Source of the DNA: a virus
Taxonomy: Duplodnaviria > Caudoviricetes
Strand: one strand, 5' to 3'
IMG/VR virus record: IMGVR_UViG_3300043567_000723
DNA: 64,000 nucleotides
In this document: positions 242 through 29,473 of the stretch, piece after piece
How the letters are laid out: every line of letters begins with the position of its first letter
Numbering within the stretch: the first letter of the stretch is position 1
Notes under the pieces: generated by a model
What the model was told of the DNA's origin: nothing
What the model saw: the letters and a program-made list of their open reading frames with translations, nothing else
The model's database searches: none
Program-made: the position numbers and the translations under genes

Positions 242-542
242 CGAGTTAATTGCCGCGTTTGAAAAAAAACAGCAAAAGTATCGCAGTTTTGGCGCAACAG
301 ATACTGAACCTGACAGGATATTTCAGCGGCTGCTCTGCGATGCTGTTAACGGTGAGACGCCGTGGATTCCGCGCACGGCTGACGCGTGGGAGTTGTACGC
401 CGACTCAATGAATTGCGACGAGGCGACCGCGGCACTAGAAAAGGCCGCCCGCGCAGTCGTGGACGCTATCGAGGCGGTCCCGATCAAGTCAGCGGGGCCC
501 ATACGAAAGCGGATCAAGGAATACTGCTGGCGGTTGCACTGA
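231..542 (+). CDS. hypothetical protein
   Basis: In the frame of track ORF 198..542. The GTG at 231 overlaps the upstream stop, as in coupled phage genes. Confidence 0.6.
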   Translation: MKLNELIAAFEKKQQKYRSFGATDTEPDRIFQRLLCDAVNGETPWIPRTADAWELYADSMNCDEATAALEKAARAVVDAIEAVPIKSAGPIRKRIKEYCWRLH

Positions 543-561
543 AGACGCACAGATTCAGTTA

Positions 562-2481
562 TCAATATCCAAAATAACTAGATCCAATTGCGTCATCGGC
601 CCAATCGTCATCATCAACAGGCGTTTGGGCTCTTACAGTGCGTTCGCTTAACCGCGCAACACCTGCAATCTCTGCAAAGTTGGGCCACGCGTTGTTTACA
701 TGCCAAAGAGCTGAGCAGCCTAAATTGACAGCCTGCGCAAAGTCGTCTGTCAATAACGTATTGCGCGTAATCGTGTAAATGTCGCCGCCCAATCGCGACT
801 CTGCTTTCTCTTCCACCAACGCAAGAAAATCTGAAATCAAACCCGGCGAATCTTGCGACGCCCAGTCGTACTGAAAGAACCGGACTTGTTTTAGTTTAAT
901 AGCCTGACACGTGTACAACAGCGATCTCGTTTTATCGAGGCTGTAGTGCGCGCGATGGTTAATTTCTGTTGGTGGTTTATAGACCATCAAATCCTGCGAT
1001 GCGGAGCGAACAAGCCGCAACGCAAGGACTCGCTCAAGATTAAACCCAGCCTGCACCATGACCGTTTCACGGACCGTGCCGGCGCCAGTGTAATCGTGAG
1101 CGACAAAATCGCAATTAAACAAATTAGACCAGCGCATACACTCAACGGCTTCGGCTAAGTGATCTCCACCAATAAGGAGACGTTTAGCCCAAAGCACATC
1201 GATTGTTCCATCGGGCCGGAATCCCAGCACAGACAGCACGGTAAAACTGACACCTGCTTCTCCGCCACCGCCCCAGTCGATCGCTAAAATGCGGTGTTTG
1301 TAATGCGACAGATTTGTAAAACACTTGGGATCTGGTTCTTTTTTGTTTTCCCAGTCTAGCAGGCATGCAGCTTTCAAATCAGTTTCGCTGATGAGCTTCT
1401 GACCGGTATCAACACTTTCTCCCATAACTTCGTTGTAGAACTGGGCTTGGGTCATATTCCCAAAGCCCTCACGTTTCAACAAAAGCGTAGACCACTTTTC
1501 AGGGTCGGAGAAATGAAGTGGCAGAATCATCTGCGGTACATGATATCCGGAAAACTGCCAGCGGCGTTCGGGATATCTGTGCACCCAGCGACCGTGTCGG
1601 GGGCTTACAGGCTTCCGGCATTTCGCGCATACGGTGCCCGGATACTTCTCGCTGATTTGATCACTGTACGGGCCGATCATTGCGTCTAAATCATATTCAA
1701 GCGCTGGAATGTTCCAGTGCTTACATGAATGACACGGAATGAACCATTCGGCTTGTGATGACCGTTTATACAAACCATAGATTAAGTTATCTAGAGTTTT
1801 TGGTGTACCCGTGTAATAACTAGTTGCCCAGCGCGAGTAAGACATGGTTTCTTGAATGATTGGCACATGATCAGGATCCATGTCTTGAACTTCGTCAATG
1901 CATACGCGGTCTGCAGACACACCGCGAATTCTGTCCGAATCAAGCAACGCGAAACTAAACAACATCATCGAGTTGTTTTTGAAAGAGCGTTGCAACACAG
2001 AGTTCTCTGTTGACGTTCCACTCCACTGCGCTTTCACCGGCGACTGATCTATAAATGGACGCACATAGTTGTTTGAAAACCGCCTAATTTGTTCATACAG
2101 CGGTGTAATAAACAACGTCTTAAAAAACGGTATAGAGTTGGCAACTACAACTCCATGCGCTGCTAGACTGGTCGATTTTGATACCTGCCGACCCGTGCAC
2201 CACACTTGATTTTTAGGGGTGAGTAACCTAAAAAGGGGGGCAAACGGAAAATGGTTCTGGAGACTATATGGCCGCCCATTAAGATTCAGAACCATCGGCA
2301 AAATTGGCTCCAACGACGGAAACGCGTGTTGCTGAGCCAATTCCTTTAATACAACCGCGCGTGCTTGTACAGAAGCCGCGTCTGTTGGGTTGATTGAGAT
2401 TAATTCCTGTATGAGCGCTTGAACGCCGGCGGACGGCATCTCAAGCGCACTATTTGCATGATCTGGTTTAACCATGACCAA
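562..2481 (-). CDS. terL: terminase large subunit, lambda GpA-like
   Basis: Walker A-like TGRQVSKS, Walker B RVCIDEVQD, TGTPKT coupling motif, CxxC pair (PCHSCKH, VCAKCRK) typical of GpA-type enzymes, and RNase H-like nuclease AIDWGGG...DDFAQA. The true start may be the ATG at 2439. Confidence 0.88.
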   Translation of the reverse strand: MVMVKPDHANSALEMPSAGVQALIQELISINPTDAASVQARAVVLKELAQQHAFPSLEPILPMVLNLNGRPYSLQNHFPFAPLFRLLTPKNQVWCTGRQVSKSTSLAAHGVVVANSIPFFKTLFITPLYEQIRRFSNNYVRPFIDQSPVKAQWSGTSTENSVLQRSFKNNSMMLFSFALLDSDRIRGVSADRVCIDEVQDMDPDHVPIIQETMSYSRWATSYYTGTPKTLDNLIYGLYKRSSQAEWFIPCHSCKHWNIPALEYDLDAMIGPYSDQISEKYPGTVCAKCRKPVSPRHGRWVHRYPERRWQFSGYHVPQMILPLHFSDPEKWSTLLLKREGFGNMTQAQFYNEVMGESVDTGQKLISETDLKAACLLDWENKKEPDPKCFTNLSHYKHRILAIDWGGGGEAGVSFTVLSVLGFRPDGTIDVLWAKRLLIGGDHLAEAVECMRWSNLFNCDFVAHDYTGAGTVRETVMVQAGFNLERVLALRLVRSASQDLMVYKPPTEINHRAHYSLDKTRSLLYTCQAIKLKQVRFFQYDWASQDSPGLISDFLALVEEKAESRLGGDIYTITRNTLLTDDFAQAVNLGCSALWHVNNAWPNFAEIAGVARLSERTVRAQTPVDDDDWADDAIGSSYFGY

Positions 2482-2641
2482 CTATAACAATTCGGGTAGC
2501 GAGTTTGAATTTCAATGGGTAGAGGAAGCCGTAAAATTTACAGGTTATGTGTTCCTTGCCGGCCTCGTTGGCCTATCGCACGCGGCTAGCTCGGCATACG
2601 AGATAGCCCGTGATGCGATCAAAGAAACAACTCGCAAGTAA
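2474..2641 (+). CDS. small putative membrane protein (55 aa, not in ORF track)
   Basis: Read by hand: MTNYNNSGSEFEFQWVEEAVKFTGYVFLAGLVGLSHAASSAYEIARDAIKETTRK*, with one hydrophobic segment. Confidence 0.45.
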   Translation: MTNYNNSGSEFEFQWVEEAVKFTGYVFLAGLVGLSHAASSAYEIARDAIKETTRK

Positions 2642-2699
2642 ACAGTTCGCGTCGGAGTATACTAAACGGTGACTCTGACGCTTACTCATAGGAGCAGTT

Positions 2700-2924
2700 A
2701 TGGCTACAGTTGGACGATCTGCCAAGCTCTATCAAGAGCGCAAACGCATTTACACAGAAGGTACCTTGCGCGGTCCCGGCCCGCAAATCTACCTTCCCGA
2801 TAACGCCGTAAACCATCTTAAACTTGAGGCGCCGTTGCCGCTACCCAAATTTCAAAATAACCCCAGCGCGCCGGACAACGCACTAACACAGGTGTGGCCC
2901 CACGGCGACAAATACATAACATAA
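2700..2924 (+). CDS. hypothetical protein
   Basis: SD-like AGGAG upstream; first gene of a tightly packed run. Confidence 0.6.
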   Translation: MATVGRSAKLYQERKRIYTEGTLRGPGPQIYLPDNAVNHLKLEAPLPLPKFQNNPSAPDNALTQVWPHGDKYIT

Positions 2925-2927
2925 TCA

Positions 2928-3113
2928 ATGGCGCAGCCTGACCCGAATACGACGTTTGCTGGTTACGCTGCTTTGCTGCTAATCGGCGGAATTATTGCAA
3001 TTCCGCAAATTGGCGCAGCCGGCTTGATTGCGGCTAGTGCAGCAATCTATAGTGGCGCATGCTTCATGCGAGGCTATAACGAACAACCGGTTAAACGAAG
3101 AAAGAAAAAATGA
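2928..3113 (+). CDS. small membrane protein with basic C-tail
   Basis: Two hydrophobic stretches followed by KRRKKK; ATGA overlap with the next gene. Confidence 0.55.
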   Translation: MAQPDPNTTFAGYAALLLIGGIIAIPQIGAAGLIAASAAIYSGACFMRGYNEQPVKRRKKK

Positions 3114-3454
3114 TCTCGGTATTGGATTTTCTTGCGGTCACGCTTGCTTCTGGCGCGGTAATAGACGTCTGGCACAAGGGCTCTATTTTCGAAACGCCGC
3201 GCGCATATGCGCAAGCTATGCAAGACATAACCCCACGAGAAACAATAAAGGGACGGCTGCTTGAGCTAATCAATTGCCCTTTTTGCAAATCGTACCATAT
3301 TCCCTTCTATCTGTTTTTAGCGCTCTTGGCAGGAAATTGGTTTGGGGGTATTGTGGGTTTTTGCGTGACGTTAGTGATCTACAGCTGGGCCGCGACCCGG
3401 CTCGGCAATATCGTCAACGGCATGCTACCGACAGACGCCCGCTACGACCAATAA
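3110..3454 (+). CDS. DUF1360-like membrane protein
   Basis: LINCPFCKSYH motif between transmembrane segments, resembling the DUF1360 CPxC motif. Confidence 0.55.
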   Translation: MISVLDFLAVTLASGAVIDVWHKGSIFETPRAYAQAMQDITPRETIKGRLLELINCPFCKSYHIPFYLFLALLAGNWFGGIVGFCVTLVIYSWAATRLGNIVNGMLPTDARYDQ

Positions 3455-3472
3455 CACGTAAGGATTGACTAG

Positions 3473-3871
3473 ATGGCTTCAGAACAAATTCAAACGCAAG
3501 CTGAAATTAGTGTAGAGCGCCTTCCGTTTGATGCAGAGTTTTTTAAACGTAGCGAAGAATTTTGCAACGACGTATTGGCCGCGGTTCCTGAACTTTCTGG
3601 TATTGCATTAGTCCCGCTTTGGCAAAATCAACCAGAAAAAATGCCCGCAGGTCTTCTCAGGCTCCGAAACTCGCAACCGCCGTTTTTGGCTAGTTTGCTG
3701 GGTTTGCTCGGCCGACTCACTAGTTTTGGCGTAGACGTTCATAAGGATCTGATTGGTCAACTCAAGATGTACGACCAATATGCCGCAGAACTTGCAGAAC
3801 GCATTAAATCGCAAACTGACGAACTAAACAAACTCGCAGAGTCGGCAAATACAACAACTAATGAACAATGA
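3473..3871 (+). CDS. hypothetical protein with C-terminal coiled coil
   Basis: Intact ORF in operon; heptad-like C-terminus. Confidence 0.6.
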   Translation: MASEQIQTQAEISVERLPFDAEFFKRSEEFCNDVLAAVPELSGIALVPLWQNQPEKMPAGLLRLRNSQPPFLASLLGLLGRLTSFGVDVHKDLIGQLKMYDQYAAELAERIKSQTDELNKLAESANTTTNEQ

Positions 3872-4175
3872 TTTATCGGCAAACATTCCAGTAGATACAA
3901 CAAGACAAACGCTTATCAACGTTTTACGCGAACAATTTGCAACACGCGACGCAGAAGAATTGCGCAAATTGTTAGAGACGCAGTACGGCGAGCAGATGTG
4001 GGACAGCGAGCAGCTTCTTAACGAATTTGAAGTTTCGCATTTCGACCCGCCGTACGTTCACGTCATTAGAAAAGTAGACGGCGTTGCTGGTACCGTCGCA
4101 TTTAACGAAGAACCACGATTCTATTTCTCATTCAAACCAATAAAGGCCGAAAACCATGTCAGAGGGTCGACATGA
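3861..4175 (+). CDS. hypothetical protein
   Basis: Intact ORF overlapping both neighbours. Confidence 0.6.
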   Translation: MNNDLSANIPVDTTRQTLINVLREQFATRDAEELRKLLETQYGEQMWDSEQLLNEFEVSHFDPPYVHVIRKVDGVAGTVAFNEEPRFYFSFKPIKAENHVRGST

Positions 4176-4518
4176 GTACGATACCGGCGCTGTTCGTAGC
4201 GATGATTGCGATCAGGTACGTTACGATTTGATTTCTCCCATTGGTTTGCGCGCGTTAGCCAGAACGTACGACGAGGGCGCAAAAAAGTTTGGGCCGTACA
4301 ACTGGGAAAACGGTATGCCGGTTGCGGATCTACTGAATCACGCAATTGCGCATATCTTCAGTTTCTTGAACGGCGATCGCACAGAGGAACATTTGGCGCA
4401 CGCCACATGGAATCTAATCGGCGCTGTCCACTCATACGAAAAGTGGCCAGAACTAAACGCCGGTATGCTGCGCGACGCAAAAGGCGATGTTCCGCCCGCC
4501 TATAAAACAAGCAAGTAA
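4156..4518 (+). CDS. dATP/dGTP diphosphohydrolase domain protein (DUF5664-like)
   Basis: TGAVR...RYDLISP..LRALARTYDEGAKKFGPYNWENG...NHAIAH...HLAHATWN matches the family pattern. Confidence 0.8.
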   Translation: MSEGRHEYDTGAVRSDDCDQVRYDLISPIGLRALARTYDEGAKKFGPYNWENGMPVADLLNHAIAHIFSFLNGDRTEEHLAHATWNLIGAVHSYEKWPELNAGMLRDAKGDVPPAYKTSK

Positions 4519-5516: not shown

Positions 5517-5568
5517 ATCTACCCGCGCGGCGTTAGTCAGGGAGGGCTAACGCCGTAGCGGGGTAGAT
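5517..5568 (+). terminator. long GC-rich hairpin after gene, probable terminator or processing stem
   Basis: ATCTACCCGC-GCGGCGTTAGTC / GGCTAACGCCGT-A-GCGGGTAGAT arms with AGGGAG loop. A second perfect 10-bp stem lies at 5578..5600. Confidence 0.55.
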
Positions 5569-5674
5569 AATCTCTTCGTATCCGCTACGCTAGCGGATAC
5601 CCACCACGGAGCACGATATGGCTACGGCCAACGTATGCCCGTTGCCAACGGTTAGGCTCCAGCGAGCTTTCGTT

Positions 5675-5911
5675 ATGCCAGCGGGCACAATTAAACGGGT
5701 TCACGTCAACCAACACATCGTCAGAGCCAACAAAAAAACCGGAGCGCAAGATTCGGTCATTACAGTGCAATGGCGAAATAAATCATACACGGCCAAACGT
5801 TTAAAAATTCTTGGCGAGTCAACCGCAATTTACTCACCAGAGAAGCCGTTGAAATGCGGAGCACACGTGTGGATTGAAACCACAGCACCAATCGAGATTG
5901 ATAACCGATGA
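5675..5911 (+). CDS. conserved phage hypothetical protein
   Basis: IKRVHVNQHIVRANKK...YSPEKPLKCGAHVWIET motif, recalled from aquatic phage proteins. The ATG at 5675 is in frame with track ORF 5618. Confidence 0.65.
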   Translation: MPAGTIKRVHVNQHIVRANKKTGAQDSVITVQWRNKSYTAKRLKILGESTAIYSPEKPLKCGAHVWIETTAPIEIDNR

Positions 5912-6228
5912 GTGCTTACGACGACCCAAAAGAAATAGCAGCTGATCGCGAACGTATATTGACCGCGCTAGATGCATTAAACAATTTACGCGAACGTTAT
6001 AAAGACGTTATTGCAATTCCCGAGGTCGTCGCATTGCACGACATAACGGAATACCACTTAGACACGCCGCGCGGTCCAAAACAGTTTAAAAAAATCTACA
6101 ACAGAGCAGCAGCCGTTGCTGTGCTTGAATATTTTGCGGGCACTGATTACATATCGCCCGAGCTATTTGAAAGCACAATCATGTGCGCACTACAAGATTA
6201 CCCACAAAGAAAGGTTAACAAAGGCTGA
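5908..6228 (+). CDS. hypothetical protein
   Basis: ATGA overlap; intact ORF. Confidence 0.6.
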   Translation: MSAYDDPKEIAADRERILTALDALNNLRERYKDVIAIPEVVALHDITEYHLDTPRGPKQFKKIYNRAAAVAVLEYFAGTDYISPELFESTIMCALQDYPQRKVNKG

Positions 6229-6231
6229 CCC

Positions 6232-6594
6232 ATGAGTCACATTGTTCAGATCAAGACGGAAGTAAAGGACGGCGCCGCGGTGCAGGCGGCTTGCCGTCGA
6301 CTGGGGCTGAAGGAGCCGACCAGCGGTAAGTTTCGCGTGTTCTCGGTGGAGCGCGAAGGTCTCGGCGTTATGCTGCCCGGCTGGCAGTACCCGGTTGTTT
6401 GCAACCTGACGTCCGGCGCCGTGGATTTTGATAACTATAACGGTTCGTGGGGCAAGCAGGAGGAGCTGGACAAGTTCCTGCAGGCTTACGCCGTTGAGAA
6501 GGCCACCTTTGAAGCCCAGAAGGGCGGCTACTCGGTGTACGAAGAAGTTCTGGCTGACGGTTCGATCAAGCTCAACCTGACCGGAGGATTCTAA
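6232..6594 (+). CDS. DUF1257 (Ycf35-like) protein
   Basis: MSHIVQIKTEVKD...FDNYNGSWG...FLQAYAVEKA..EAQKGGYSVYEEVLADGSIKL signature. Confidence 0.8.
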   Translation: MSHIVQIKTEVKDGAAVQAACRRLGLKEPTSGKFRVFSVEREGLGVMLPGWQYPVVCNLTSGAVDFDNYNGSWGKQEELDKFLQAYAVEKATFEAQKGGYSVYEEVLADGSIKLNLTGGF

Positions 6595-23890: not shown

Positions 23891-24028
23891 ATGAACAACA
23901 TTCATTTTGATCCGGTAGCCGTTATTGACCACCCAGAATTATTGACCTCTGAGCTAGGTAAGGTATGCTGCGCAATATTTTGTATGCGCGATAGCTTTAA
24001 AGACGACTGCCGTTTGCCTAAAGAATAG
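23891..24028 (+). CDS. small hypothetical protein
   Basis: The ATG at 23891 is in the frame of track ORF 23693. Confidence 0.4.
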   Translation: MNNIHFDPVAVIDHPELLTSELGKVCCAIFCMRDSFKDDCRLPKE

Positions 24029-24057
24029 GCCGCGTACGTTTTAACACGGAGGTTTAT

Positions 24058-24588
24058 ATGAGTTTGATTCGTGGCAACATGTCTGTTCGACGCAACGATA
24101 AATGCCCGTGCGACAGCGGCAAGAAATATAAACATTGCCACTCGCCGGAAGCGTCAAAGCATCCAAACAGCCACATGAAGCCGGTGAAGTACATAGACAG
24201 CGGCGAAGAAGCTGTGAAGTACGTAATCGGCGATAGTACAGGCGTAAAATTCTTCTCCGACAAAGATAACAATATCCTTGTCTTTGCCTCGCGCGAAGAA
24301 GCCACGGCAATTGCGCTGCTCGAAGACTTTGCTGACCAAGCGCCCGGCGAGATTAACGTTGCCGGCGTTGGGCAAACCAAGTGGGAGCATTTGCAAACCA
24401 AGCTGCCGTATGTAGAAGTTAAAAGTGTTGAGCACGCCGCGAGCCTCATTCGCGAGCGTATTGAAATTCAAGCCGCCAAACTGGAGAGCATGTCTGATGA
24501 AGTCGACCAACCAGAAGAAGAAAATAGTTCCAAAGAAAAAGCCCAGCCGGAAACCGCAAGCGAAGAAAACGAAATCAACGCGCAGTGA
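24058..24588 (+). CDS. SEC-C motif protein
   Basis: GGAGG SD; RNDKCPCDSGKKYKHCH zinc-binding SEC-C motif. Confidence 0.8.
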   Translation: MSLIRGNMSVRRNDKCPCDSGKKYKHCHSPEASKHPNSHMKPVKYIDSGEEAVKYVIGDSTGVKFFSDKDNNILVFASREEATAIALLEDFADQAPGEINVAGVGQTKWEHLQTKLPYVEVKSVEHAASLIRERIEIQAAKLESMSDEVDQPEEENSSKEKAQPETASEENEINAQ

Positions 24589-24883
24589 TGCCGTTGACGT
24601 AGTCCTTCTTGAAACGCTGGACGAGTTGGTGTCTGTATTGAAGGGTCACCGGGAAGTGCTGGCCGACCTGCAAAAGCATGTAGCTGCGTTATATGCGCGC
24701 AGTAAATACGATAATCAGCCGCAGCAGCCGCAGCCGCAACAATGGCCTAGCTGGCCGTTAGCCGGCAAAGGCACATACACATATGCGGCGCCGTATTACG
24801 TCGACTGCACGAACGGTTCGCAGCATTTGTACGGGTATATCGGCAACCAGCCAGCGGGTTCAAACCAACCTAAGAACAAATAA
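24497..24883 (+). CDS. hypothetical protein with K-rich N-terminus
   Basis: The ATG at 24497 is in the frame of track ORF 24425; start uncertain. Confidence 0.5.
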   Translation: MKSTNQKKKIVPKKKPSRKPQAKKTKSTRSDAVDVVLLETLDELVSVLKGHREVLADLQKHVAALYARSKYDNQPQQPQPQQWPSWPLAGKGTYTYAAPYYVDCTNGSQHLYGYIGNQPAGSNQPKNK

Positions 24884-24885
24884 CA

Positions 24886-25182
24886 ATGGACCTTGAGCCT
24901 ATTTGGGCCGGCGACAAGCAGGCTATTCGGCTTGCCATGGGTGAGTTGAGCGCGCAAGAAATGCGTAGCGTTCTTGCGTTGCTCAATCTTCTTCGCCCAG
25001 AGCACGAGAAGCTGCAATACAAGCTGCGCGAGTATTCATTGGAATTACTCGCGCTGCACGATCAGGCACTATTAACTCAGATGGCTTACCTCAAACAACA
25101 AGGATGCTGTAATGACGTTTCACGAACTGGAAGAGAAGGTGCTGCAGTGGGCGATGGACCGGAAGATCATTCCCAACAGTAA
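24886..25182 (+). CDS. hypothetical protein
   Basis: Intact ORF in run. Confidence 0.5.
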   Translation: MDLEPIWAGDKQAIRLAMGELSAQEMRSVLALLNLLRPEHEKLQYKLREYSLELLALHDQALLTQMAYLKQQGCCNDVSRTGREGAAVGDGPEDHSQQ

Positions 25183-25420
25183 TCCCACAGCGCAACTCAT
25201 GAAGACAATGTCGGAGTTGGGCGAGTTAGCCGACGCCACGCTCAAGGGCGATGACGCCGGCATTGTGGACGGCGTAGGCGACGTGCTGGTGACACTGATT
25301 CTGTACTGCAAATTACAAGAAATCAGCGTAGCGGCATGTTTAGGTCGTGCCTACGATGAGATTAAAGATAGAAAAGGCACTTTAACACCAGAAGGTATTT
25401 TTGTGAAAGAGACAGCATGA
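25112..25420 (+). CDS. mazG: MazG-like NTP pyrophosphohydrolase
   Basis: QLMKTMSELGELADA..KGD...IVDGVGDVLVTL (ExxE...DxxxD) and YDEIKDRKG. Confidence 0.8.
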   Translation: MTFHELEEKVLQWAMDRKIIPNSNPTAQLMKTMSELGELADATLKGDDAGIVDGVGDVLVTLILYCKLQEISVAACLGRAYDEIKDRKGTLTPEGIFVKETA

Positions 25421-25967
25421 TCGATCCAAATAAAGTAATAAGTGACTGCGAGCAAGCCGATCATATTATGCAGGATCAACGGGCCGAAATTGATCGGCTC
25501 AAGGAAGCCCTCCGCCGCCTCGCTGACCAAGACGCCACGCTCTCGGTGTGCAACGGCAACGTAATTGTGACGATGGACGCCACGCTCACCGACGAGGAGT
25601 TGGAGGCGGTGGAGTGGTCGATTAACGATCAGATTGCCGGTGGGCATCAAGATCACCCAACTGTTAAAGCCGTTATCGTCACCCTGCGCGGCCTGCTGGA
25701 GCGGCTTGGAGGTGACAAGTGAGTGACATCGTTTTCGACGGCATGGTGTTTGACAGGCTCCGCGAGATAGGCGACCAGAGCGACAGGATTGCATCGCTGG
25801 AGTCAGAGATCGCCCGCCTGCGCCTCACCGACGATGAACGGGAGACGATCAAGCGGGCGATTGACTCGCAGCAGGACCGGGCTGCCGAAATGCACAGTAG
25901 ATCATGGGACGCAGCCGCCATCGACGAGGACTGCGACACGCTACGCGGGCTGCTGGAACGACTAGGT

Positions 25968-26057
25968 TGAGAACACCGAAGATCAACAGCCGCGAACTAG
26001 GAGGGCGGCGACTATGAGCGATACGAATGAGCAGTCTGTTGCATCGAATGGTTCTCA
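25968..26057 (-). mobile_element. integron attC recombination site
   Basis: Minus strand: TGAGAAC-CATTC-GAT[G]CAACAG[A]CTGC...GCGG-CTGTTG-ATC-TTCGGT-GTTCTCA. It has perfect 7-bp R boxes, 5/6-nt spacers and two extrahelical bases spaced as in canonical attC. Confidence 0.75.
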
Positions 26058-26334
26058 CGGGGAGCCAGTCGCGTGGGGTGTGTTTTACGGCGATGGAAAA
26101 CTTCATTCATTATTGGACTCGCACGCAAAGGCCGAATGCACGGCGTTGACAATGCGAAAGTTCGACCATCTCGGCGTCTATGTTTCGCCGCTCTATTGCC
26201 AGCCAACGCTCACCGAAGCGGAGCAACTCGCAGTTGCATGGGCGGCGAGAGAGGCCGACGAGTGGGACGAGGAAGACACCCCAGAGGTCGCTGCACACGC
26301 CGATGCGTTGCGCGGGTTGGCAAGGCGACTATTC

Positions 26335-26363
26335 TGAGAACGAACAGGATCGCGTGGTTCTGG
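26335..26363 (-). mobile_element. collapsed attC remnant
   Basis: Minus strand CCAGAAC-CACGC-GATC-CTGTTC-GTTCTCA: same R boxes and 5/6 spacers, with the central stem deleted at GATC. Confidence 0.55.
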
Positions 26364-26375
26364 AGACACACACAC

Positions 26376-26543
26376 ATGACAATCACTCAAATAATCGGCG
26401 CTGCACTGATCTCATCACCATTTGCGGGCGTTGCTGTGTTGTGCCACATGCACGGCGGCTGGCCCGCCGTTGCTGTAGTGTTTGGTGCGAGCGGAGCCGT
26501 TGTTGCTGCTATCGCACTTGGGTGTCGACTTCTGGTTCCATAA
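26376..26543 (+). CDS. small two-helix membrane peptide
   Basis: MTITQIIGAALISSPFAGVAVLCHMHGGWPAVAVVFGASGAVVAAIALGCRLLVP*, lying between attC-like sites 2 and 3. Confidence 0.55.
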   Translation: MTITQIIGAALISSPFAGVAVLCHMHGGWPAVAVVFGASGAVVAAIALGCRLLVP

Positions 26544-26567
26544 CACGCAGGATCAGGAGCGGCGAAC
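26538..26567 (-). mobile_element. attC half-site (L'-R' arm)
   Basis: Plus strand CCATAAC-ACGCAG-GATCAGGAGCGGCGAAC parallels AGAAC-ACCGAA-GATCAACAGCCGCGAAC of site 1; no partner arm found. Confidence 0.45.
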
Positions 26568-27004
26568 AATGAGCGATGACAACACGCACATGGCTACGGC
26601 AAAGCTGGCTGCCGCGAACACATGGCTGCAAGAAGAAATCAAGCGGTTGCGGCTCACCGACGCGGAGCGGGAGGCGGTGGAGTGGGCGGAAGAACTCGCT
26701 GGAAACTGCGAAGAGTTTGATCGCGTTGACACGCTTCGCAACCTACTGGAGAGAACGAAGTGACTAAAACACAATGTCAAGTTCCGTCGCAAATAAACGT
26801 GACGCTCACAGACGAGCAGCGAGAGTCATTGCGGGCGTCCTTGTCAGGCGGTGCAGGAGGCCCGCTGGTTCATCCACCGCAGCCCGCGCTCACCGACGAG
26901 GAGCGTGAGGCGATACAGCGGCTGATTGAAGATTACGAACAAGACGGCGAGCCAGCGAGCGCAGTCTGTGTTGCCACGCTGCGTACTTTATTAGAAAGGC
27001 TGAA

Positions 27005-27448
27005 ATGAATCCAATTCGAGAAAACACTATTCCGCTCAACGAGTGTCGCAACGGCTGGGTGTATAGATTGTCCAGTCGAAATCTTGGCTTTGGCGTTTTC
27101 GTGCAGGCCAGCAATGGTTTTATCGGCATCCGCGAGAAATTTAATCACAAATATCTATTCACTGAGTACCACCGTGATACGGGTGTGCCGTTTGGAACAG
27201 TGTGCCCCAAGGAAGAACTGGAACCTGCTCCACCCGGTTTAGTATTGAAAGAAAACGGCCCGCTTATTAATGAGGAAAACGGTCGCGTCGTCGTGCTCGA
27301 AGCGGGAACGGAATATCCGTCACCGCGAACCTATCGGTACGCCGATACATCAGAGATCTGCGATCCGGGTGAAATTGTGTGGTCGTGCAACCAACCGTTA
27401 CACGACTATATGTTGTTAGTTGAAAACAAATATTGCAATAAAACATAA
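27005..27448 (+). CDS. hypothetical protein
   Basis: ATGA overlap; intact ORF. Confidence 0.6.
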   Translation: MNPIRENTIPLNECRNGWVYRLSSRNLGFGVFVQASNGFIGIREKFNHKYLFTEYHRDTGVPFGTVCPKEELEPAPPGLVLKENGPLINEENGRVVVLEAGTEYPSPRTYRYADTSEICDPGEIVWSCNQPLHDYMLLVENKYCNKT

Positions 27449-27670
27449 AAGAGAAAACGACGTGAGGAGCGACCCCAACGACTGCGACGAGACCGTCCTT
27501 TTGACCGCCGAGGTGCGGCGATTGCAGGCGATTATCGCCGCAAGTGATCCTGTACTCACCGACGAGGAGCGGTTCGTCTTGCGAGAGGCGCGAGACTTTT
27601 ACGCCGACGTTGACGATGTCAGGTGCAACGAAATAGCGGCGGTCATCGACGGGCTGCTGGAGCGCACAAA

Positions 27671-28282
27671 ATGAACGCCGACATCCCGACGTTTCGCTGC
27701 TGGGTCAGACTTCCGCACATTTCTCGCCGTGACGGTGTTGAGGAAGCGTATGCCTTTGCAGTTCAAAGCGTTAAGGGGCGGGCGTTAGGATTTCATTGCA
27801 TGCTCAAGTCAGGTGCGCATTATAGAAACGTGCCGATTCACGCGCTGTCTTTGTACCCCGAAGTTCCAGAGCGCCGGTTAGGCGATTTGCAACTTTGGGA
27901 TTGTTTTTCAAGCAAACCAGTTGTCCATGTCTTTGATTACCTCTGCAACCATGAGTGCATCTGCTACTTGAGAAGCGGCGAACAGGCGGAAGGAACATAC
28001 CAATTCACTGTAGATTGGCTGCCTGATTCGCGAGAGTCGCCCGGGTTTGTGCTGCGCCCGGAGCAAAACAAATGCGCGCATATTATTGCCTTGGCAGATG
28101 GCAACATTTGCGCTCTGCCGACAAACCGGATCGCGTGGCGGGATGCGTATTTTATTGGCCGGAACCCAGACCCGAAGTCGGCAGGATATTTAGTGCAGGA
28201 TCTTGTCTACCAAGCAGAAGATTCTCGCTGGGATTTCAGCGGAGACGACGGCGGGTATATGTATGAACCAAAACAAATCTAA
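27671..28282 (+). CDS. conserved phage hypothetical protein
   Basis: MNADIP...GRALGFHCMLKSGAHYRNVPIHAL...LQLWDCFS motif, recalled from aquatic phages. Confidence 0.65.
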   Translation: MNADIPTFRCWVRLPHISRRDGVEEAYAFAVQSVKGRALGFHCMLKSGAHYRNVPIHALSLYPEVPERRLGDLQLWDCFSSKPVVHVFDYLCNHECICYLRSGEQAEGTYQFTVDWLPDSRESPGFVLRPEQNKCAHIIALADGNICALPTNRIAWRDAYFIGRNPDPKSAGYLVQDLVYQAEDSRWDFSGDDGGYMYEPKQI

Positions 28283-28387
28283 AAATTGCAACGCTCCGCG
28301 CGTTGTTGAATCGTTTGATAACGCAGACATTAAATAATGCTGTGTCCGGTATAAACGACACAAACAAACACAGGTGAAAGATTCCCT

Positions 28388-29473
28388 TTGAGTGTATTTG
28401 ATTTTGTTGCGCATGTTCGGCGCTACAAGTTGCGCCCGTGGCGTGTAGCACGCGTTGGTCGACGAATGTCGCAGACGTTTGCGCAACAATTCGGGCTGCA
28501 CTTAGATAGCATAAAAAGCTACAAAGTAGTTGTGGCGCGTACAAATGCTGTACGCAATAAATGGGCGATGCGGTTGAAAGAACTGGCTTCGAGAAACCTA
28601 TGGTTTCCGCATTCAAAAAACCTGAACCCGTATTCCGCCGATTTTGACCTTAAAAAATTTACGCTTACGTTTCAGCGTTGTTTATTCTGCCGCCCGTCGT
28701 ATTTGTATTTTTTCTGGAAGCGTACAAAAGTTTTTAGGCCGTGTAACCGATCGTACTTCTGTCCGTTTTGTTTTGCTCGCGTCAGTCAGGCGCAGTACGT
28801 TCACGTGCGCAAAAAAATACGGGCTATTGGCAATCAGAACTCCAGTACGCCACTTATTGCCACATGTCGCGTAACCAGTCGGTTTTTGCCGGCGCCTGAC
28901 TTTGATCTGATATCTGGCTGCGACAACGATAAAGTCTCGGAGTACTCGCGGTTGTTATGGGGCGAGTTACGGCGAGAGCGTGCCGCGTATCAAAAACTAG
29001 TTAAACAATTGAATCGAAAAACGCGCGGATCTATGTGGCGGCTAGTTGTAGTGCCGCAAGACACCGGCTGGATTATTGAGACGCGTCAATTTCTGTTGCA
29101 TCAGCCAAAAATAAAGATGCCGTTTGTGCGACCCAAGAATGGCAAAGTGGTGTACCTGAAATCTATCAAAGCCGCTGTTTGCTATAACCAGTCCGACACA
29201 GAATTTTATTTTATGCTGGGGCAGTTCAATCGGTATCCAGTCGAGCTATTGACTGGCTACGCTGAATTGACCGCGGCATATCTGCGCGCCGTCGACGGGA
29301 TGCACACTATTTCAGGTACCGGTATTTTTCGCCGGGCTGGGCGGTCGCTTGTTGAGCTTTTCAAAGCGAGGCACGAAACACATGGCGAAGGCGAGAAGAG
29401 GCAGAAAAACAACGTACGCCCAGTACCGGCGGAAAATGCTGCACGACGATCAGCCGTGGCGTCAGCGCCTTGA
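28388..29473 (+). CDS. zinc-binding protein with degenerate rolling-circle Rep (HUH)-like fold
   Basis: CLFC...PCNRSYFCPFCFAR zinc cluster as in pC194-type Rep/IS91. GSMWRLVVVPQDTGWIIETRQFLL aligns with the HUH strand but has no His residues. Confidence 0.45.
   Translation: MSVFDFVAHVRRYKLRPWRVARVGRRMSQTFAQQFGLHLDSIKSYKVVVARTNAVRNKWAMRLKELASRNLWFPHSKNLNPYSADFDLKKFTLTFQRCLFCRPSYLYFFWKRTKVFRPCNRSYFCPFCFARVSQAQYVHVRKKIRAIGNQNSSTPLIATCRVTSRFLPAPDFDLISGCDNDKVSEYSRLLWGELRRERAAYQKLVKQLNRKTRGSMWRLVVVPQDTGWIIETRQFLLHQPKIKMPFVRPKNGKVVYLKSIKAAVCYNQSDTEFYFMLGQFNRYPVELLTGYAELTAAYLRAVDGMHTISGTGIFRRAGRSLVELFKARHETHGEGEKRQKNNVRPVPAENAARRSAVASAP

Follow-up and report, generated by a model that had tools for sequence, protein, structure and literature searches.

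How does a phage come to carry what look like the recombination sites of integrons, and what could it do with them? The question is raised by a stretch of 64,000 nucleotides of viral DNA (Duplodnaviria; Caudoviricetes; IMG/VR record IMGVR_UViG_3300043567_000723), which we call the window, and in particular by three elements on its + strand, at 25968-26057 (site 1), 26335-26363 (site 2) and 26538-26590 (site 3). A preliminary description of this DNA had taken them for integron attC sites that are inverted relative to the genes, have no integrase with them, and have apparently been co-opted by the phage. From sequence comparison and a covariance model, we can say with good confidence that they are attC sites of the integron type and that they delimit gene cassettes. 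Structure and model further place them in the family of attC sites found in chromosomal integrons of Pirellulales (Planctomycetota). Together, the three sites would be what is left, among the early accessory genes of a phage from lake water, of a small and largely decayed cassette array without integrase.

The sites

In published descriptions of the attC bottom strand (Nivina et al. 2016, PMC5027507; Nivina et al. 2020, PMC7439510), the R box has 5′-AAC-3′ in its 5′ arm, the central spacer is unpaired and 5-6 nt long, and two extrahelical bases stand opposite the AAC, at position 16 (usually a G) and at position 23 or 24 (a conserved T), with a 6-bp stem between them; the terminal structure is variable, and the whole measures 57-141 nt. 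Read on the + strand, site 1 agrees with every one of these positional features: the R-box triplets, the spacers, the extrahelical positions, and the length, which is 90 nt.

Site 1 is intact, and its polarity is that of a bottom strand, as judged both from its sequence and from the covariance model described below. It begins with the left R box TGAGAAC (25968-25974) and a 6-nt left spacer, ACCGAA (25975-25980), followed by the 5′ arm of the L box, GAT-CAACAG (25981-25989), and by 45 nt of apical stem and variable loop (25990-26034). On the returning side come an extrahelical T (26035, position 23 counted from the 3′ end), the 3′ arm of the L box, which consists of CTGTTG (26036-26041) and ATC (26043-26045) with an extrahelical C between them (26042, position 16 from the 3′ end), a 5-nt right spacer, GAATG (26046-26050), and the right R box GTTCTCA (26051-26057). 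Six base pairs separate the extrahelical C and T, both of which lie in the arm opposite the AAC, and the two spacers have no complementarity to each other. The variable loop holds a Shine-Dalgarno sequence, AGGAGGG (25999-26005), and an ATG (26014-26016), at which a cassette open reading frame (ORF) starts on the + strand.

Site 2 (26335-26363, +) is a short form of 29 nt, which retains both R boxes and both spacers and has lost the L stem and the loop by a deletion at GATC. A short form of the same type also follows the homologous ORF in three related viral loci (L002, L003 and L005). Site 3 (26538-26590, +) is a half site, with the left R box CCATAAC, a spacer, GAT-CAGGAG, a 4-nt arm of the apical stem, and a loop with an ATG at 26569. 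Its right arm is lost; full-length counterparts exist in L001 (703-792) and L006 (7620-7709).

These observations bear out most of what the preliminary description had to say about the DNA itself. The attC geometry at 25968-26057 is as it was described, to the base, with the folding strand now read as the + strand. The Shine-Dalgarno sequence and ATG of the next gene are indeed in the loop of site 1, site 2 is the frame of site 1 with the stem deleted at GATC, and site 3 is a half site. The claim that all three sites overlap the stop codon of the preceding gene is also correct: there is a TGA ending at 25970, a TGA ending at 26337, and a TAA within CCATAAC.

Scans of the window itself return little. 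An Rfam scan by E-value of positions 24000-29000 gave nothing relevant, and blastn of positions 24000-28000 against 50,697 phage records gave no match. The left-half pattern TGAGAAC-N6-GATC, with two mismatches allowed, has the same frequency in the window as in shuffled sequence, and only its two exact copies matter. A scan for geometry only finds 0.33 structures per 64 kb of shuffled sequence, both strands included; a strict geometry scanner missed sites of one Pirellulales genome, G032, that the covariance model detects.

Comparison with the integrons of Pirellulales

attC sites are taxon-specific, and a model of the Planctomycetes attC exists (Ghaly et al. 2021, PMC8352920); integrons are known to occur in Planctomycetes (PMC4889954). 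A metagenome-assembled genome (MAG) of Pirellulales from a lake, G017, encodes two integron integrases (IntI) that score 435 and 388 bits on TIGR02249, for which the integron-integrase cut-off is 265 bits. A motif for the right arm of the sites has 12 matches on 8 contigs of this genome, versus 1 for a control pattern. On at least 10 contigs of G017 there are sites of 88-89 nt that agree with the phage sites in their L boxes, in the bulged T and C, and in their GAAC/GTTC boxes, and in its arrays the box halves are complementary across cassettes. IntI proteins above the cut-off are also found in G032 and in a further genome, G112, and in G032 the gene adjoins an array.

We used G017 to build a covariance model, R1, from only 13 sites of this IntI-encoding genome. 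Applied to the window, R1 reports a single match, at 25968-26057, which is full length (model positions 1-88) and scores 31.8 bits with an E-value of 3.8e-8; site 2 goes undetected. That a covariance model should score this interval had been set out beforehand as a check on the attC identity of the sites, and the identity stood. In 923 kb of phage loci, R1 reports 255 matches at E ≤ 1e-3 in 87 loci, with scores of up to 81 bits, and it has matches in 24 of 101 sampled genomes of the order Pirellulales, several of them clustered in arrays.

Host and phage sites have one plan and much of their sequence in common, xxxxAAC, 6 nt, GAT-CAGCGG, apical stem, loop, T, CCGCTG, C, ATC, 5 nt, GTTxxxx, together with box halves that are complementary across each cassette, and a model made from host sites detects the phage ones. 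They differ in that the Pirellulales sites lie beside IntI genes, and in that forms of 49 and 56 nt are a feature of the phages.

The site family in related phages

A search of IMG/VR with the 107-aa protein encoded between sites 1 and 2 and with a neighboring protein gives 13 loci, and these have sites at gene boundaries. A pattern scan for one subtype adds 76 further viral stretches and 3 MAG contigs, one of the latter from G017. The catalogue of phage sites comprises 246 copies in 84 locus strands, of which 190 are unique; their lengths fall into classes of 49, 56 and 86-91 nt. The sites form arrays of up to 14 (L006) and, in another locus, 12 (L057), with a spacing of 250-600 bp. Whether relatives carry sites at gene boundaries was another check put forward at the start, and they do, with arrays in related freshwater phage contigs.

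The L stems of the relatives are compensated, as in CAGCGG/CCGCTG, CAGGAG/CTCCTG and CAACAG/CTGTTG, and the bulged C and bulged T are always kept in these. Over the 190 unique copies, position 16 is a C in 183 and position 23 a T in 181, and the 6-bp upper L stem occurs in at least 10 variants with Watson-Crick compensation. Wobbles, read on the + strand, are G.T in 25 cases versus A.C in 4. AAC/GTT is conserved throughout the catalogued family, the commonest left R boxes being TGAGAAC, ACAGAAC and GCATAAC. The spacers vary in sequence, and between the commonest variants of the left and right spacers there is no complementarity.

By its appearance, the long form is a compact form into which an initiation module has been inserted. 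A pair of sites in different loci is of interest here: a site of 89 nt in L080 (5823-5911) and one of 49 nt in L085 (4193-4241, minus-strand reading) are identical in boxes, spacers and L stems, and differ only by a loop block of about 40 nt, which brings the Shine-Dalgarno sequence, the ATG and the first codons. In the third size class, of 55-56 nt (14 unique copies, for instance in L029 at 2563-2618, in L079, and in L089 at 3128-3183), the L stem is AAGCGG/CCGCTT and the apical stem is short and rich in GC.

The cassette signature

In integrons the crossover takes place inside the R box, and this has a consequence that can be looked for in the arrays: the box halves on the two sides of a cassette should be cognate, but nothing requires the halves within a single integrated site to match. 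For 120 unique pairs of adjacent phage sites, the outer four bases of the R box have a mean complementarity of 3.61 out of 4 across the ORF, and 92 of the 120 are perfect (permutation p < 1e-4). Within one site the mean is 2.28 out of 4, and for random pairs 2.21 out of 4. A hairpin acting as RNA, or a protein operator, would not predict pairing across the ORF.

The window follows the same rule. Its first cassette ORF (107 aa, 26014-26337, +) starts in site 1, crosses the right R box, and ends at the TGA in the left R box of site 2; the boxes on its two sides, GTTCTCA of site 1 and TGAGAAC of site 2, are complementary at 7 of 7 positions. The second (55 aa, 26376-26543, +) is flanked by GTTCTGG of site 2 and CCATAAC of site 3, complementary at 6 of 7. 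Relatives of the 107-aa protein, at 50-63% identity, are found in 8 viral contigs; the 55-aa product is hydrophobic and likely a membrane protein.

A second kind of evidence comes from the places where homology between cassettes ends. Cassettes homologous at the nucleotide level are few (9 pairs among 123 unique bodies), and the breakpoint statistics therefore come from few pairs. The 9 pairs have their homologous bodies in differing contexts, and most of the informative ones diverge right after the AAC in the left box of the downstream site. When hairpin cores are near-identical, the downstream flank is common in 9 pairs and the upstream flank in 1, from which it follows that a hairpin travels with the ORF after it on the + strand. 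This polarity is what one would see if the crossover took place at AA^C in the left box and if the + strand were the bottom strand.

Variants of the window itself are available in contigs of four other lake metagenomes, which we compared with positions 24800-28300. In these contigs site 3 is found joined to other cassettes, with the junction exactly in front of its AAC at 26542, and in contigs from four lake runs the match to the window ends at 26547, just past that AAC. One lake variant departs from the window after 26361, within the right box of site 2, and one has, after 27668, an attC that is absent from the window. The proposal that cassettes are shuffled here in the manner of an attC cluster without an integron integrase (CALIN) is well served by these results, with R-box halves that pair across ORFs and with homology that breaks at R boxes both in relatives and in lake variants.

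Not every rearrangement of the region is of this kind. Two lake runs contain a contig that joins 25615 to 25968, which removes the paralogue at 25719-25970 and stops at the first base of site 1; this joint is a recombination between the ends of LLERLG genes.

Inverted genes and embedded start codons

On which strand are the genes of the cassettes? Contig C82 of G032 has a complete integron on one contig, with six sites in model orientation on its + strand (390-4518), and with the cassette ORFs, two lipoproteins among them, and intI (5564-6505) on the minus strand. For the cassettes this is the canonical layout. An intI co-directional with the cassettes is an arrangement described for Planctomycetes and Spirochaetes. 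As a separate observation, contig C45 of G017 (L120) has an attC-like site at 120-210, about 1.2 kb upstream of an intI (1376-2317) that is on the model-orientation strand. The arrangement is opposite to that in G032, so both layouts may exist in Pirellulales.

The longest open frame of a cassette is opposite the model strand in 25 host and 26 phage cassettes, and on the model strand in 5 host and 71 phage cassettes. The phage ORFs are on the strand that resembles the bottom strand, after their own attC; the canonical layout, with a top-strand ORF followed by its attC, is not theirs. Of the long sites, 76 of 93 unique ones in phages, and 4 of 42 in hosts, contain an ATG or GTG that opens a frame of at least 50 codons through the right box. 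A Shine-Dalgarno-like motif accompanies 68 of the phage starts and none of the host ones. The codon phase in which the frame crosses the right box is the same in 65 of these 76 phage sites, and in 97 of 122 unique phage cassettes the left box, or the sequence directly ahead of it, holds a stop codon of the + strand at one of three fixed registers.

In Pirellulales cassettes the ORFs are on the top strand and no in-site start has a Shine-Dalgarno sequence (0 of 42), whereas in the phages the ORFs are on the bottom-strand side and in-site starts are the rule (76 of 93 long sites). Both the inversion and the co-option suggested by the preliminary description can be recognized in this: the genes and intI of G032 stand opposite the model strand and the phage ORFs on it, and the phage sites have been co-opted in the sense that they have acquired a translation-initiation region.

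Which recombinase?

Can the phage recombine these sites by itself? A profile of 12 proteins (10 phage recombinases and 2 IntI) finds no tyrosine recombinase at E ≤ 10 among the 467 frames of at least 60 aa in the window, as had been claimed. A relative of 167 kb, G005, has no tyrosine recombinase either, though it has sites, and no IntI was found in the frames of at least 150 aa of loci L001-L095.

A complete integron has an intI adjoining the array, and the window has none. By the definition of Cury et al. (2016, PMC4889954), a CALIN is a cluster of two or more attC sites on the same strand that has no intI in its vicinity. The window has one site that passes the model and two relics within 600 bp, and no recombinase; its relatives with arrays, such as L006 and L057, fall under the definition.

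Some related phages do encode recombinases. Of 15 array-bearing contigs searched, 10 have a tyrosine recombinase, among them each of the four contigs whose completeness is at least 99%, and 8 of these 10 proteins belong to one family of about 285-350 aa with a C-terminal YLDPRI..LP motif (among L014, L015 and L096-L101; G001, G003, G006, G008-G011 and G015). The phage recombinases score at most 18.7 bits on TIGR02249, and their genes are 7-30 kb from the arrays. The family with the YLDPRI..LP motif is Xer-like and distinct from IntI, and its members are probably lysogeny integrases, but still candidates for acting on the sites. Because the phage enzymes are generic Xer-like proteins, far below the IntI cut-off and distant from the arrays, a host IntI is the most economical candidate. 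Given the attC family that hosts and phages have in common, we consider it a little more likely than not that host IntI is the enzyme. Breakpoints at the R boxes are indirect support for recombination of the folded bottom strand by an integron integrase.

A model of cassette exchange

How would these parts work together? In the model that we favor, the + strand is the folding strand and corresponds to the bottom strand of an integron: its 5′ arm contains the AAC, and its 3′ arm the two extrahelical bases, C and T. A cassette on this strand would run from the C of a left R box through the hairpin, the right box GTTxxxx and the ORF to the xxxxAA of the next left box. Cassette boundaries read in this way place the crossover at AA^C, and upon excision as a circle the box halves from either side of an ORF would come together as a single R box. 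With phage ORFs on the bottom-strand side, each hairpin precedes its own ORF, and the long form of about 90 nt supplies that ORF with its Shine-Dalgarno sequence, its start codon and its first 12-18 codons. A host IntI, possibly induced during infection, would catalyze attC x attC exchange on single-stranded phage DNA. In the mRNA, the hairpin may also modulate translation.

Put more broadly, freshwater phages of Planctomycetota may keep a cassette pool of their own, borrow the IntI of their hosts, and have rebuilt attC as a module that serves recombination and also gives its cassette a ribosome-binding site, a start codon and a short N-terminal leader. We offer this broader picture tentatively, at a little less than an even chance. 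If it is right, small accessory genes are shuffled among unrelated phages, possibly genes of host takeover or counter-defence, and, the genes being inverted, they would be expressed from phage transcripts and not read from the promoter of a host integron.

Alternative explanations

Several observations weigh against this account. The first concern the sequence and fold of site 1. The extended R-box consensus is 5′-RYYYAAC-3′ / 5′-GTTRRRY-3′ (PMC5027507), and TGAGAAC agrees with none of its four degenerate positions; the first extrahelical base is a C and not the usual G. Canonical attC sites of mobile integrons, such as attCaadA7 and VCR2, have in common with the window the AAC/GTT of the R box, a spacer of 5-6 nt, extrahelical bases at 16 and 23, a 6-bp stem and a variable terminus, and they differ from it in these same two respects (TGAGAAC/GTTCTCA, and C as the first extrahelical base); the compact 49-nt form of the phages is in addition shorter than the published 57-141 nt. 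The Pirellulales host sites have both departures, GAAC/GTTC boxes and an extrahelical C, and since these sites are associated with IntI, the departure in the R box is a trait of the lineage and not a ground for exclusion. The folding energy of site 1 does not differ significantly from that of shuffled sequences (z of -1.45 as DNA on the minus strand, and -0.44 as RNA on the plus strand). Thus, the support for the sites comes from comparison and not from thermodynamics.

Other points concern the mechanism. Some breakpoints are in the loop, or at or near the right box, which indicates that homologous exchange between conserved hairpins also occurs and that the picture of a single crossover is incomplete. 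The region is also reshuffled by homologous recombination between LLER gene ends. Only one of the three window sites is intact. And with no tyrosine recombinase in the window or in G005, activity would depend on a host that is inferred only from MAG binning and attC type.

The last of these points bring up the explanation that survives best next to active exchange, namely that the sites are fossils: genuine attC by descent, and in that respect compatible with the family assignment, that no longer recombine in this lineage. They would have come by homologous recombination with array-bearing phages and would persist as intergenic and translation-initiation sequence. Besides the decay of two sites and the missing recombinase, the low score of site 1 for its family (31.8 bits, where others reach 81) and the reshuffling of the neighborhood at LLER-type gene ends that have no attC sites are what one would expect of a fossil. 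The lake variants are not: they still join different cassettes exactly at the left box of site 3, and one of them has an attC after 27668 at a boundary that lacks one in the window. Site 1, moreover, retains every structural feature, both extrahelical bases included. We regard the fossil explanation as unlikely, and yet as one to be taken seriously.

A second possibility keeps exchange active and changes the enzyme. Cassettes would be moved by a phage-encoded Xer-like tyrosine recombinase and not by host IntI; the phages would have an integron-like system that is self-contained, and the window phage would depend on co-infecting relatives for the enzyme. That two thirds of the array-bearing contigs searched (10 of 15), and every one that is at least 99% complete, encode a tyrosine recombinase, mostly of one family (8 of 10), speaks for this idea. 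Their scores on the IntI model and their distance from the arrays speak against it, as does their resemblance to ordinary lysogeny integrases common to related temperate phages. The same attC family adjoins true IntI genes in host genomes, and the window and G005 have the sites without the recombinase. All in all, this explanation is improbable.

Much less probable still is that the hairpins are RNA elements and nothing else, a translational gate or an RNase III-type processing site with lower stem, internal loop and upper stem, and that they came to resemble attC by convergence. Transcription and folding concern one and the same strand, as the G.U-compatible wobbles on the + strand indicate; the loop holds a Shine-Dalgarno sequence and an ATG, or in some types the Shine-Dalgarno sequence is in the L stem, and a stop codon is in the lower stem. 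All of this would suit an RNA element. It is contradicted by the lower (R) stem, which covaries across the ORF with the next site and not within its own site, by the presence of the same family beside IntI in host integrons with the genes on the other strand, and by the compact 49-nt form, which has no Shine-Dalgarno sequence or ATG; nor is there any Rfam match.

Finally, a chance inverted repeat added to the leftover similarity of tandemly duplicated small genes, which could appeal to the neighboring genes being paralogues with similar ends and leaders, to the weak fold z-scores and to a 17-nt left-half pattern that with two mismatches is no commoner in the window than in shuffles, has next to no credibility and is refuted by the family catalogue (246 copies in 84 locus strands, with compensatory changes in the stems, against a geometry null of 0.33 per 64 kb) and by the match of the independent model R1 at the exact coordinates.

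Some other candidates were considered and rejected. The guide arrays of VIPR/TIGR systems are unlike these hairpins, as vrRNAs consist of GGY/NN repeats. For hairpins of the REP/RAYT or IS200/IS605 type, the cassette signature of the R boxes fits integrons better, and no HUH gene was seen, with no HUH/Y1 profile having been run. One geometry match near a phage integrase gene, in L016, is of unrelated sequence and was judged to be due to chance.

Relation to known systems

attC sites in phages are of a kind already known, by virtue of the work of Qi et al. (2023, PMC9892861). They reported 17 CALINs in sequenced phages, virulent ones included, each with at least two predicted sites, and found that IntI1 recombined 5 of 6 attC sites tested from virulent phages. 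In the CALINs of virulent phages, two phages have the usual bacterial cassette layout, and predicted methyltransferases are among the phage-associated gene cassettes (PMC9892861). The likeness to our case is that attC sites occur in phages with no intI nearby, and that access to cassettes through a bacterial IntI is proposed. What differs is that we describe one homologous site family, in at least 76 freshwater IMG/VR stretches and in arrays of up to 14, and that its genes are inverted and its sites fused to a translation start.

We did not find described one attC family common to the integrons of a bacterial order and to many freshwater phages. The same holds for phage arrays of a dozen or more sites, for a uniform inversion of the genes, and for a site fused to the start of its cassette gene.

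The other system that comes to mind is that of the promoter-early stem-loop (PeSL) cassettes of T4-type phages, reportedly described in 2010 by Arbiol, Comeau, Krisch and co-workers, in which structured intergenic repeats are said to flank small accessory genes in a hyperplastic region where gene shuffling has been proposed. PeSLs are reportedly promoter-plus-terminator-like and thought to act through homologous recombination. They resemble the present sites as repeated structured intergenic elements around small accessory genes in a variable phage region, and differ in that neither an attC geometry, nor a crossover signature at R boxes, nor a connection with integron integrases is known for them.

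Integrons are known as devices with which bacteria capture genes, and up to now the only attC clusters on record in phages were rare and small. Here, one attC family links the integrons of Pirellulales to arrays in at least 76 viral stretches, on contigs of very different sizes, which suggests that recombination of the integron type routinely contributes to the mosaic make-up of accessory regions in these phages. As the inversion of the genes and the start codons within the hairpins show, a site of recombination can be adapted to expression in a new host replicon, and such remodelled sites bear on the origin of cassettes and of their attC sites. From the attC type, Pirellulales can also be predicted as the hosts of a large number of lake phages that have not been cultured. 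And a single hairpin that may serve both mobility and translation start provides an experimental handle.

Neighboring genes and minor observations

Upstream of site 1 is an ORF of 83 aa (25719-25970, +) with the motif LTDxER...LLERLG, whose TGA stop is formed by the first three bases of the left R box. An ORF of 64 aa from the LTDxER...LLER family (26569-26763, +) starts in the remnant loop of site 3; its N-terminal codons are common to the L001 site, after which the two diverge. Mini-proteins with LTDxER...LLER(LG/TK) account for 26-27 of the 122 unique phage cassettes, about one fifth, and their conserved 3′ end abuts the left R box. The cassette ORFs of the window have no Pfam match and no informative PHROG match.

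The cassette region of the window is bordered on one side by a gene for a MazG-like pyrophosphatase (Pfam PF03819, phrog_1992; 25112-25420), and on the other by a gene (27623-28282) that matches phrog_3704, annotated as a ferredoxin in the moron/host-takeover category. In L006, beside the array of 14 sites, an open frame at 676-1992 has an SPPYWGLRDY-like motif, typical of N6/N4 DNA methyltransferases.

A gene of 147 aa in the window (27005-27448, phrog_3740) is 99% identical in close relatives (26650-27680 of the window compared with L010 4600-6400 and L012 4340-6190). In L010 and L012 the neighbors of this gene are reordered, and a homologue of 27566-27674 is found upstream of it. The junctions are without attC, so a second route of shuffling seems to operate there.

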